64,000 bases of DNA from Proteromonas lacertae (taxonomy: Eukaryota): assembly GCA_002245135.1 (NCBI GenBank), contig NGBS01000305.1, forward strand, positions 1-64,000, read 5' to 3'. Within the stretch, counting starts at the first letter, position 1. Each line of letters opens with the position of its first letter. Position numbers and translations under genes: made by a program. Under the pieces are notes generated by a model. The model saw only the letters and a program-made list of their open reading frames with translations, was not told the DNA's origin and did no database searches. Shown here in pieces: positions 3,345 to 10,599 of the stretch.

Positions 3345-6300
3345 CTAATTTTCTTTTACTTCTCTTAATATATCTTTGAGAAAATTTTCATCTGATTCAT
3401 TCATTTTTACTTCTTCATCTCCTTTCCTCAATTCATAATAAAATAAATATGGAACAAATTCCTTGTATTTATCTTCTTCCAATGCAGATATATTATCTAT
3501 TTTATCATCATTAAATACATAGAAATTTTCATCAACAGTAGATTTACAAACTGCAATATAATGATGACCATGATAACAAGAGATTCCTTTTAAATCATAA
3601 ATATAATTTCCTACTATCAATTCTTTACGGTAATGAACAATTGGAATTACAACTGATTTTACATCTTCGTCCATCCTCAATAATTTCTTCACGTTTTTCT
3701 TAACAATCTCCTTCTCATTATCTTTTATAGAAACTTGAAGAACCAATACTTTAGTAAATTTATTTTCATAACAATCTATCATTTCTAATTTTTCATTAAA
3801 TAGTCTTTTGGCACTATTAAGATGATTTAACAGTATACCCAAAAAATGTAACACATCTTGTTGAGTATCTACTTTAAAGTCTTCTCCATCTATTGCACTT
3901 CTAAAATTTTGAAAGTTATTATCTTCATATAATATTGTTGTTGTACTATTACATAAAGAATTAAACAAATTTGAGAATTCATTTTCTATATTATTACTAT
4001 ATCGACCCTTTGGTATGTAGCAATCTCGAAATGGTTTGATATGAGCTAAGCATTGTAATGTTGAGTTCATGTAACAAGTATTATGAAAATATCTCTCAAT
4101 ACCACAAGTATCACCTACATCATTGACTAATACTGTATCTGGTGATGATGGTAGTGGATGTTGTTGTGGTAATGAAGATGATTGTATGCATTGTCTTTTT
4201 GAAAATGGTTCATCATCATCATTATTGTGTTGTGGTGGTGGTGGTGGTGGTGGTTGAAGTTGTTGTGTTAGTGGAGGTTGTGGTGATGGTGATGGTGGTG
4301 ATGATTCTATACGTGGTATTTTTGATGGTTGTTTATCATATTTATCATCACTAAATTCTTTATTTTTTTCTACTACATTAAGTTCTTTCAGTGGATTTCT
4401 GAAAAATAAAATACATATATCATTTCTTTCTCTTATACTATCAAATTGTATATAATTTTTCAAAATTGTATTAAAACTATCACCTTCTTTATATATATAT
4501 CCTTGTAAACTATAATCTCTATTTCTTATACTAATTTTATATTCTATTTCGTAGTTATAACCTATAGAATTAATCACATTTACAATTAGATAATCTGATT
4601 TTACTGTTATATCATTAAAATTTCTACTTTTTAATACTTTATTGTTATTATTTATTTTGAAGTCTATATGATGATTCTGTGAACTTCCTTTTTTTATCTT
4701 TAATTTATTATTAACATCTTTTAAATTTGTTTTATTTACCAATTTTTCTATAATTTCTATTGGTTCAATCTTAACATTACTGAATAACTCTTTCATTTTA
4801 TCTATTGCTTTTGACATTTCGTCTCTCTCATTATTCTTACTTTCATTCAAATACTTATTCAATGCTACTACCACTTCATCAACTTCTTTATTTTTTCCAT
4901 TCTTTACTTCTTCTTCTAACATATACTTGGCATTTTTGACATATTCTTTTAATTGGTTATCACTAAAAATTAAATCTATACATGACATAATACACCAATT
5001 TTTCTTTAAACAATCATTAATTTCATCAGCTTTTAATCTTTTGTTATTACATTTCATAGTTCTAAATTTAATTCCATTTTCTTCTTTTATACCATTTTCA
5101 AATTGAACAAAGTTATTAAATGCTTGGTTAGAATAGAAATTTACTATATCATTATTTGTTGCTATTAAATAATAAATATCTTTTCCAATTACACCATGAT
5201 ATTTCATCAATCTATCATAAATATTTTCATCAATTACTTCATCTCTATCGTTCTTATTTGATGGATGTATTATTACATTATTAATTGAATAAAAAATATC
5301 ATCATCTTTAGCAATAGCTAATTCACCAACATAATAACCTTCTCCTAATGCTTCTGATTTACAACAATTTTTGTTAAAGCTATAAAAAATGTCTTTTAAA
5401 CCATTATCAAATTCTGTTATTCCAACACCTGACCAATTTCTATTGTGAATTATTCTATACCATACTAATTCATTGAATAATATTTTATATAAAGGATGAT
5501 TTTGATTGTTTCTTATTTCGTTATAATAATAATCATGAAATAATTGACATTCTTTTCCACTTAATTTATGACTTACACAATTGTAAACGTATCTAAATAT
5601 TTCTTTTGAAACAAATTCTAATTGATATTTATCAATTGAATCATAATTTTTAACTTTATATTTAAATACATAATGTGATAAATCTGTATCAAATGTATCA
5701 TATTTAACATTATTTTTATATAATTCATTATCATTTTCTAAATTATCATCTGCATTTTGGCATGGACATAGATACTTCTTTATAAATTCATAATAACCCA
5801 TATCTGAAGCTATTGTATTTATGCATTTCGTATATATATCATTCCAATATTTTCTTCCTTCATAATAAACATCGTATATTGCTGCAAAATATAAATGTCT
5901 TGGAACATTGTTATATAATGGTAGAAATTTATCAATTACTTTGCCTAAATCGTGTGGTAAACATTTGTTTTTCCATTTCACTATTTCATCATCACTGCAA
6001 ATATCTAAATAGAAATATATCTTTTTATAATCATCAAATCTTTTTATATTTGAATAATTCTTACTATCTGGAGAACTTATATTTATAATTATTTCATATC
6101 CATTATATTCGTCAGAGGGAATATTAACTGAATCACATATGATTATGTCAGAAGAAATTTCATTTTTCTCTAAGTGATAATTATTTAAATAGCATTTATC
6201 TTCCTCTGGTATAACATCATGATCTTGCTTAGAACTCTTATAATATGCAAAACTTAATTTAGGAATTTTTAATTCTTTCTTCAATTCAATGAATTTGGTT

Positions 6301-9300: not shown

Positions 9301-10599
9301 CATCTTTCTTTTTCTTATCTCTAGTGTTTCCTGATATAGTACTTTCATTAATATTGAAACAGTTTTAACCAAATTATGATTATTACTTACAGTTACTTGA
9401 TATCCATTTATACATTCATTATTTATCTCAATTCCATCAACTGCTGGAAAATTCTTTCTAAATGAACAATTTATAAATAATGGTAACTGTTTTTTATTCA
9501 ACTGTGGTAAATCTGATTCATTCATTATTATCTTATTCTCCATTTCTTCATTTAACATCTTTATACACAACACTAAATGTTCATAATACCAACCACACTC
9601 ACTTCCTAGTTTGTTATTTACTTTTGTTTCATAATCATTAATACTATGATCATTTTCTATTTCATCTTTTAATAGGTCCAAAAAGGTATTAAAATTCTTT
9701 ACATTAACAAAACTTTTATCTGTTTTCATTGCTTTATTTCTAATATAATCAGATATAAATCTCAATTTTTCAGGTATGTCAGTTACTTTTTCAACATCAT
9801 AAATAAAAACATTCTCATTATATTTATTTTTAATATAATATTCAATTTTACCATCAAATTCACTAATTGCTAATCCTGTATTTATAGTATATAATCCAGG
9901 AATTCCCCCATAAATATCGGTTTTATGTTTAGAACTATTCTTCTCCCAAAACAACGTCATTTCATATATATCAAATGGAAGAATACAATACTGTATTGGA
10001 GATCTTTTGGACCTCATCACTTTATATTTAGACAAATCTGGAGATGTAACAAGTATTACAACATCAAAATCACTATACTCATCCTCACTAATTGATTTAT
10101 TTTCACTGATCATTATTGACTTATCTCCTTGTTTTTCTATTAATGCTGATGATTCTTCATATACTGATGAATTGGAATTCTTCACAAAATATTTATTTTT
10201 TTTGTATCTATATATCACTTGATAATTTTTATATTTAATGGATATAAATTCATTTAATAAATACATACAAAACATTGTTTTACCTATTAATCTATTACCA
10301 TACACCAAAAAATTCTTTTGCCTTGGGAATGGCTTATCCATGTATTTCTTCATATCTTCATATATCTCATTGTAACAGTTTCTGATAATAAAGAATATAT
10401 CTTCATCAGTAGGATTATGGTTAGCATCAACAAAAGCATATGTTAAACTAACGACATCATTACAGCCATGTTCAGCTTTTTTAAAAACTATTTCTTCCTT
10501 TCCTCTCTTTTGAAGTTCTTCATAAGACAATTTTGGGTAATCAACTATCTTTGGCTGACCTATTTCATGAATTAATGAATTAACATATATGTCATTCAT
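3345..10599 (-). CDS. ~2395-aa Crinkler/RHS-like polyprotein: P-loop NTPase A + REase-like motif, Zn-finger/repeat region, P-loop NTPase B, Pro-rich linker, C19/USP deubiquitinase
   Basis: Three ORFs join in frame via GT-AG introns at 9096-9126 (31 nt) and 6749-6784 (36 nt). Motifs: GNRLIGKT, TSPD, GGIPG, NFPAVDG...YQVTV...H; GQPGCGKS, SSPD, NNVPR; USP boxes NTCYMNSTLQCL, QQD, HGHHYIA, FNDD. Confidence 0.8.
7021..7492 (-). repeat. Coding tandem repeat, 198-bp (66-aa) unit, ~2.4 copies
   Basis: gttggatgattaattat recurs at 7021, 7219 and 7417. The peptide ETVPITPSLPNDQNNLPSN.IINHPT occurs three times. Confidence 0.9.

Follow-up and report, generated by a model that had tools for sequence, protein, structure and literature searches.

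A predicted Crinkler/RHS-type NTPase-nuclease gene ending in a ubiquitin-specific protease, beside a 5S rRNA gene of Proteromonas lacertae

Described relatives of the Proteromonas gene

Proteins of the Crinkler/RHS (CR) type join an NTPase to a helix-turn-helix domain and a restriction-endonuclease-like (REase) domain (PMC5289972), a layout restated in PMC6131194 and PMC11064341. Their origin has been linked to transposons (Zhang et al. 2016, via PMC5289972, PMC11342252, PMC6131194 and PMC11064341), and Ulp1-like peptidases are found among their C-terminal domains (PMC5289972). The subject of this report is a gene of Proteromonas lacertae that is predicted to belong to the CR type and to end in a ubiquitin-specific protease (USP). 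It occupies positions 3345 to 10599 on the minus strand of a 64,000-nt stretch of contig NGBS01000305.1, the window from which all DNA evidence was drawn.

How does this gene compare with CR proteins? As in these, a P-loop NTPase is followed by an REase-like motif, and its neighbours in the Atlas are CRN and RHS clusters. By contrast, it combines two modules, drawn from different subfamilies, in a single frame, and one of these has no nuclease motif; its deubiquitinase (DUB) is a C-terminal USP of peptidase family C19 and not a Ulp1; it has no recognisable header; and it is flanked by long direct repeats. The LxLFLAK header and the HVLVxxP motif of oomycete and fungal CRN effectors are absent from exon 1.

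The Wolbachia protein CifB (CidB/CinB) offers a second comparison. It contains active and inactive REase units related to those of CR proteins, fused to a DUB that has been proposed to act as a co-effector or guardian (PMC11342252). The same design, nuclease plus deubiquitinase with active and inactive REase units, is predicted here from sequence. However, CifB is a bacterial protein with four tandem REases, no NTPase and a Ulp1 or OTU peptidase, and it pairs with CifA, whereas the Proteromonas gene is a nuclear gene with introns, at most two REase-like regions, each behind an NTPase, and a USP. No cifA-type partner was identified; the upstream neighbours look unrelated.

CR-type genes can also be selfish. 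Tribolium Medea1 is a CR-type gene acting as a selfish element (PMC11342252), and AACRNL of fish is a selfish CR-type gene that has lost its header and is countered by host ubiquitination (PMC12957317). The likeness lies in CR-type genes residing inside free-living eukaryotes without a header, and ubiquitination is the pressure that a fused USP would answer. AACRNL differs in having an ADP-ribosyltransferase and in relying for its movement on hAT/mariner elements next to it, whose inverted repeats have no counterpart found at the Proteromonas locus.

Gene structure and domains

The window has a GC content of 27.2% and contains eukaryotic genes interrupted by AT-rich introns of roughly 27-49 nt, a setting similar to that of those Blastocystis isolates described as low in GC and variable in their introns (PMC12129017). 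Three stop-free frames on the minus strand lie head to tail (9085-10608, 6753-9095 and 3345-6752). They are likely to form one spliced gene of 2,395 aa, the splicing being deduced from the DNA, with the following parts.

9127..10599, minus strand: exon 1, 1473 nt, 491 aa; CR module A and REase-like motif
9096..9126, minus strand: intron 1, 31 nt, GT..AG, phase 0, 90% AT
6785..9095, minus strand: exon 2, 2311 nt, 770 codons plus 1 nt; charged linker, EEKAKT repeats, two CxxC motifs and 66-aa repeats
6749..6784, minus strand: intron 2, 36 nt, GT..AG, phase 1, 94% AT
4947..6748, minus strand: first part of exon 3; CR module B
4113..4946, minus strand: middle of exon 3; a region without family assignment and a Pro/Gln-rich linker, poly-Pro near 4253
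3345..4112, minus strand: end of exon 3; compact USP (peptidase C19), stop codon at 3345

Exon 3 is 3404 nt long, and the three exons total 7,188 nt, that is, 2,395 codons and a stop, which is the only one and is terminal. A first-pass annotation, made by a model from the letters of the sequence, had proposed that two short introns fuse the open reading frames (ORFs) in frame into a protein of about 2,395 aa. The exon lengths, the single terminal stop and the intron pattern of this genome agree with that proposal, and every motif that it named, in the domain order it gave, was located in the translated exons.

The window contains 32 matches to the pattern GTA[ATC]{22-44}TAG, and the 22,029 nt of long-ORF interior (15 ORFs) contain one. 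Both junctions fit it, a result that is partly circular because the pattern was derived from a list including these two introns. Among AT-rich candidates of up to 45 nt that would join ORFs, 18 have GT-AG ends, as against 0-8 for each of nine control dinucleotide pairs. Junction 2 has a single in-frame candidate. Junction 1 has four more, which are less AT-rich and would each still join the frames, so that the length of the protein may differ by a few residues.

Two relatives of module B, P0001 and P0049, reach far enough upstream to bear on intron 2. Each has one peptide rich in F, I, Y, N and L, with nothing like it elsewhere in the protein, which terminates, with IG or IE, exactly 7 residues ahead of a common IF[NS] motif. 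Reading through intron 2 of the Proteromonas gene gives the same spacing, 7 residues before IF[NS]. The peptide, known from protein only, appears to be what a conserved phase-1 intron would look like after being read through by a gene caller.

The NTPase of module A (exon 1) begins after about 70 residues. It has a Walker A motif, GNRLIGKT (nt 10299), an ISEN strand, SPD and YGGIPG, the last without the Arg of PR; its Walker B strand carries Glu (ISEN) against Asp in most rows of the alignment. In module B (exon 3), which reads GQPGCGKS (6344), IICDS, SSPD and YNNVPR, all NTPase motifs are intact. The GGxPR motif of the first-pass annotation is therefore kept, as regards its Arg, in module B (YNNVPR) and not in module A (GGIPG). 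The Atlas neighbours of exon 1 are unnamed fungal clusters (0.98), a CRN cluster (0.98) and trypanosome RHS (0.93); residues 1-620 of exon 3 fall near the same clusters (0.94-0.85; CRN 0.93). These results count as one kind of evidence, with CRN/RHS clusters at 0.87-0.98 across both modules. An alignment-based model of the NTPase A core (residues 12-160; predicted local confidence, pLDDT, 57-85) resembles AAA+/STAND folds, namely ORC, RFC, NLRP9 and Avs5, and its best match in VIA has a Z of 9.5 and a root-mean-square deviation of 5.6 over 160 aligned residues. Exon 1 modelled from its single sequence gave no usable structure (pLDDT 40). The earlier assignment of CR/RHS-type NTPases is supported by the Atlas neighbours and by the AAA+/STAND matches of the model.

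Have the two modules arisen by recent duplication? They are homologous (profile link 90%, E 1.4e-6), and a 14-row tree with long branches separates A-type from B-type modules by a 98/95 split. This makes a recent tandem duplication improbable, and modules A and B probably represent two CR subfamilies. A HMMER search with exon 3 returned 31 proteins at E <= 0.001: module B accounts for 10 of them and the USP for 21. Module B has differing upstream neighbours in P0001, P0049 and the Proteromonas gene. The relative P0017 matches TIGR01631 Trypano_RHS weakly (E 0.005), and PADLOC and NCBIfam gave weak P-loop matches only.

Behind module A lie YYEHL (9588), FPAVD (9450) and YQVT..NNH (9402). The pattern FP.VD.{6-14}Q[IV]T, which was drawn from the sequences in which it was then counted, occurs in exon 1, in a second CR locus of the window (NFPDVD..IQIT at 59881) and in P0017, an NTPase relative and the only one of 50 proteins examined to carry it, and in none of 100,000 shuffles. 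The longer motif E..FPxVD..QxT..H is common to module A, the second locus and P0017, and at the level of sequence the conservation of FP.VD..Q[IV]T across these three A-type sequences is real. E..FPxVD..QxT..H may be an REase active site. This reading follows the usual form of such motifs and the CR layout in PMC5289972, and under it module A would be an active nuclease of REase fold. In module B and its relatives the matching region reads IFYSINNVIIH or VIYLMNNCFIH, without Asp and Gln, and is therefore likely to be inactive.

In exon 2, the 66-aa repeats noted at first pass are present in about 2.4 copies, 98% identical (about 7019-7500). What had been called a Zn region does hold two CxxC motifs (nt 7775 and 7655); it has no family match, and a PDB sequence search was blank. 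Library scans gave no family match for exon 2. The CxxC region was also considered as a displaced fingers subdomain of the USP and rejected (-1.2 bits, with shuffles scoring higher).

The USP itself is as annotated before. Pfam UCH scores 57 bits within exon 3 and 70 bits for the domain alone (cut-off 23.9). The Cys box NTCYMNS (4082), QQD (3863), the His box HGHHY (3572) and FNDD (3515) are present, and the Cys, His and Asp align with those of USP4 and USP2. A partial OTU-like stretch stands ahead of the B-type CR NTPase in P0049 (cluster of P0008, 19 members); its match to PF02338 (E 8e-4) is below cut-off and begins mid-domain, and the His position is not evident. This hints weakly that B modules may have acquired deubiquitinases on more than one occasion.

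The 5S rRNA gene, the flanking repeats and a second CR locus

Both the gene and the second CR locus are bracketed by direct repeats, and the features concerned are these.

3069..3187, plus strand: 5S rRNA gene, intact (88 bits with Rfam RF00001); it lies on the opposite strand, 157 nt past the stop codon
3140..3236, plus strand: direct repeat copy 1, the 3' half of the 5S gene and a T-rich tail
11015..11108, plus strand: direct repeat copy 2, a decayed 5S 3' half and tail, upstream of the start codon
10616..10885, no strand assigned: 45-nt tandem array of about five to six copies, directly upstream of the start codon, within the repeat-bounded cassette
56281..60127, plus strand: second CR locus, with module B, an intron candidate and module A; no USP
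58525-58561, plus strand: intron candidate of the second locus, 37 nt, GT..AG
55909..55986, plus strand: left direct repeat of the second locus, 78 nt, not 5S-related
60198..60275, plus strand: right direct repeat of the second locus, 78 nt

Copy 2 is 81% identical to copy 1 over 97 columns, with 43 of 54 bases kept in the 5S part, and the 5' half of the 5S gene is absent from it. The position of the gene between an intact 5S gene and a decayed 5S end suggests arrival as a mobile cassette. The first-pass annotation had missed the 5S gene, the direct repeats and the second locus with its permuted modules, as well as the missing nuclease motif of module B. The 45-nt array takes up most of the stretch ahead of the start codon and is possibly regulatory. 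An RCC1 gene remnant was considered as the flanking repeat and dropped when Rfam identified 5S rRNA.

At the second locus the modules stand in the order B then A, the reverse of that in the first gene, and the two loci are 30-35% identical in common stretches. At its 3' end the reading frame shifts three times, near 59600, 59810 and 59930, which may reflect decay or an assembly error. In its module B (56281-58524, plus strand) Walker A and Walker B are separated by an inserted stretch of about 300 residues, and a basic leader (KRAR) stands where the first gene has an intron. The repeats that bracket it are 92% identical, the first 56 nt exactly so.

A self-comparison of the window at E <= 1e-4 gave seven matches: four within tandem arrays of the cassette of the USP gene, one inverted repeat and two long-range direct repeats. 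The latter are the only long-range direct repeats in the window, and each brackets one CR locus. The plan of both loci is a repeat, about 300-420 nt, the gene, about 70-110 nt and a repeat. The repeats of the two loci have no sequence in common, and no terminal inverted repeats above shuffles were found at either. A 12-nt match at 55862 (score 28) was rejected as a 5S remnant at the second locus, since it falls within the null. Unrelated repeats, no significant 5S remnant at the second locus and no inverted ends speak against a simple element model.

Other features of the window are as follows. Left of the 5S gene lies an imperfect inverted repeat (1566-2526; 89% over 297 columns, its arms separated by about 370 nt), and further left are decayed remnants of genes, interrupted by stops and shifts of frame (328-1500, plus strand), with a weak putative Ig match (PF05345, E 0.012). 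The upstream neighbour of the USP gene (11240-12381, minus strand) is deoxynucleoside kinase-like (PF01712, E 3.6e-5, below cut-off). A very large surface protein with EGF/tenascin-type repeats, assigned to its family by eye, spans several frames with internal repeats at 40166-47069 (plus strand). Right after the second CR locus, in the stretch 60800-63417 (plus strand), the GC content rises abruptly to 0.40-0.42 (60800-61700), and a frame of 738 codons without introns has no Pfam, NCBIfam or IMG/VR match. A motif at about 61480-61700 recalls proteins associated with Polinton or adintovirus polymerases.

Which mobile elements have a similar anatomy? Starships carry a dedicated recombinase. The Starship Voyager disrupts a 5S gene 20 bp from its 5' end (PMC9156397), and Dada-5S inserts at 5S with duplications of 6-7 bp (PMC8869645). 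The Proteromonas cassette would, like both, be an insertion at a 5S rRNA gene; unlike these elements, which have a dedicated transposase or recombinase, it shows a duplication of about 97 nt and an intact 5S gene remains. KolobokP, for which nuclease cleavage followed by unequal crossover has been proposed (PMC9587614), and the Replitrons (PMC10288648) are alike in having direct repeats at their ends. However, those repeats belong to the element and the transposases are of the DDD/E or HUH type, whereas the repeats of the two Proteromonas loci are unrelated and one of them is host 5S. No DDE, tyrosine-recombinase or HUH enzyme was matched by Pfam in the three exons. Bacterial islands that restore tRNA genes provide an analogue for an insertion that restores an intact 5S gene.

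Origin and possible role

Has the gene been maintained since it reached this site? Neutral drift of the exons was simulated in 300 runs. At 19% divergence the mean was 99 stops, and even at 2% none of the 300 runs was stop-free. If the 5S duplication dates the insertion, the combination of a 5S copy diverged by about 19% with an intact frame implies selection on the gene at this locus.

The explanation that we put forward, tentatively and as somewhat short of probable, is that of a non-secreted CR-type protein encoded by a mobile cassette at a 5S gene, kept by selection, and acting as an ATP-gated nuclease against invading DNA with a USP as its guard. A CR cassette would have been inserted long ago next to the 5S rRNA gene, the flanking repeats would have arisen at insertion, and the cassette would have been retained by selection afterwards. 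Module B, whose NTPase motifs are intact and which has no nuclease motif, would serve as an ATP switch or a DNA-binding scaffold, while module A, without the PR Arg, would supply the cut. The target would be foreign DNA inside the organism's own cell. The USP would guard the protein from ubiquitin-driven destruction rather than attack, a role already proposed for the DUBs of CifB fusions (PMC11342252). A crude scan found neither a hydrophobic leader nor a membrane segment.

Several results weigh against this explanation. P-loop matches of the exons in Pfam were sub-threshold only, RHSP, Crinkler and RHS_N had no match, and Foldseek returned nothing for the NTPase A model at E <= 0.001 (best E 6e-3). 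The REase region has a pLDDT below 50 in both models (single-sequence and alignment-based) and was named by none of the libraries used (Pfam, PDB sequence search, PADLOC and NCBIfam); its absence among the fold matches is uninformative, as the alignment-based model resolved the NTPase core only. The first-pass annotation had proposed an REase-like motif and suggested structure prediction for each domain: the motif stands, in three A-type sequences, and so does an AAA+/STAND fold for NTPase A. In the USP the fingers subdomain is absent, since 167 positions (107-273) of a profile of 18 USP sequences (21 supplied, three dropped for having no Cys-box match) map to 66 residues without CxxC. Also absent is the oxyanion Asn, five residues before the Cys, which all 18 compared USPs possess. 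With both missing, this compact fingerless USP, a predicted C19 peptidase, may be weak or selective. Both features are common among USPs without being universal, and CYLD-type USPs are also without fingers. The argument from selection is void if the cassette carried an already diverged 5S fragment, and only two loci in one window, with no empty site seen, stand behind the repeat pattern. Protein, metagenome and virus searches found no relative that has the complete architecture, and no result here points to a substrate.

Is the cassette instead still selfish and self-mobilising? Its NTPase-REase would then cut its own target, the 5S gene, a 60-100-nt duplication would leave one intact 5S gene, Medea-like toxicity or recent activity would account for its maintenance, and the USP would protect the element's protein. 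Att-type integration leaves one intact gene plus a leftover 3' part, and the intact 5S gene with its leftover 3' half matches that layout. The two CR loci share the same anatomy of repeat, gap, gene, gap and repeat, and the 3' end of the second is disrupted, as in dead copies. Dada-5S (PMC8869645) and Starship Voyager (PMC9156397) are known to use 5S as a safe target, and CR NTPase-REase pairs have been linked to transposons (PMC5289972) and to Medea1 (PMC11342252). This account is nevertheless rather unlikely, given that the repeats of the two loci are unrelated in sequence, the 5S match at the second locus is not significant, terminal inverted repeats are lacking, Pfam finds no transposase or integrase domain in the three exons, and loci only 30-35% identical give no sign of recent copying within the window. 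Distinctly less probable is that the repeats are scars of one-off recombination or repair, in which case a host deubiquitinase would have accreted CR domains by exon shuffling and the nuclease motif would be incidental. The varied upstream neighbours of module B do suggest an exon cassette, and the bracketing repeats are not the only ones in the window, as the inverted repeat at 1566-2526 shows. However, both of the two CR loci are bracketed and no other gene in the window is, the nuclease motif has been kept in three A-type sequences, and it is the USP that is the reduced part.

The word 'effector' in the first-pass annotation, if meant in the exported sense, is unsupported. An effector exported against a host animal or neighbouring microbes, in the manner of oomycete CRNs or Wolbachia CifB, has precedents, in that effectors are known among both CR proteins and REase-plus-DUB fusions (PMC5289972, PMC11342252) and CR headers can do without signal peptides (PMC5289972). 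It is very unlikely here: exon 1 has no ubiquitin-like (Ubl)/LxLFLAK header or HVLVxxP motif, Pfam Crinkler (PF20147) and RHS_N do not match, only about 70 residues precede the NTPase, there is no hydrophobic leader, and the protein is 2,395 aa in size. We give almost no weight to the idea that the frames are two or three separate genes, or that retention of intron 1 yields a regulated short form, a stand-alone NTPase-REase of about 500 aa, with the downstream frames apart. Read-through of intron 1 does terminate at 9085 and would yield a complete classic CR protein, and false gene-joining introns are a known annotation fault in Blastocystis (PMC12129017). Yet the frames abut or overlap, which leaves promoters no room, both junctions fit the intron pattern, intron 2 appears conserved, and the modules of the second locus are linked through a candidate intron of the same kind.

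There is also a broader proposal, which we consider unlikely. The CR NTPase-REase genes of this protist lineage would be integrase-free mobile cassettes, in which the cassette's own nuclease opens the target, a 60-100-nt duplication restores the 5S gene, and exon shuffling rearranges modules A and B. DUBs (the USP, and the OTU-like stretch in P0049) would have been taken up as guards time and again, so that the CifB design arose convergently in a nuclear genome.

How novel is the architecture? Word-indexed protein searches, which are weak negatives, returned nothing for exon 1 (0 of 4,271 candidates) or for the module A alignment (0 of 4,848), and revealed no module B relatives with longer fusions (0 of 3,652). 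No related loci were found in JGI metagenomes or IMG/VR, tblastn against plasmids and phages gave no match, a PDB sequence search with exon 1 was blank, and an exact-sequence lookup of eight window proteins in a protein collection found none (0/8). A literature search found no description of a CR-USP fusion or of a repeat-bracketed CR gene, although the supplement of Zhang et al. 2016 could list CR-USP or double-NTPase proteins; among the papers listed by a search on direct repeats and transposons there was no mention of Crinkler. The novelty of the fusion is moderate, because Ulp1-like peptidases are already listed among CR domains (PMC5289972).

By its sequence and by analogy, the gene is predicted to function as a CR NTPase-REase protein and to share the design logic of CifB. 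A fusion of REase and USP would carry the nuclease-plus-DUB design of Wolbachia CifB into the nuclear genes of eukaryotes and would allow the 'guardian DUB' idea to be tested directly, and a fingerless USP is relevant to ubiquitin specialists. Should the repeats prove to be scars, the gene would still be an unusual but understandable CR architecture. CR genes probably descend from transposons, and two repeat-bracketed loci make it testable how such a gene itself moves. If the broader proposal is true, these genes would represent an undescribed class of integrase-free eukaryotic mobile elements that leave target duplications of 60-100 nt.

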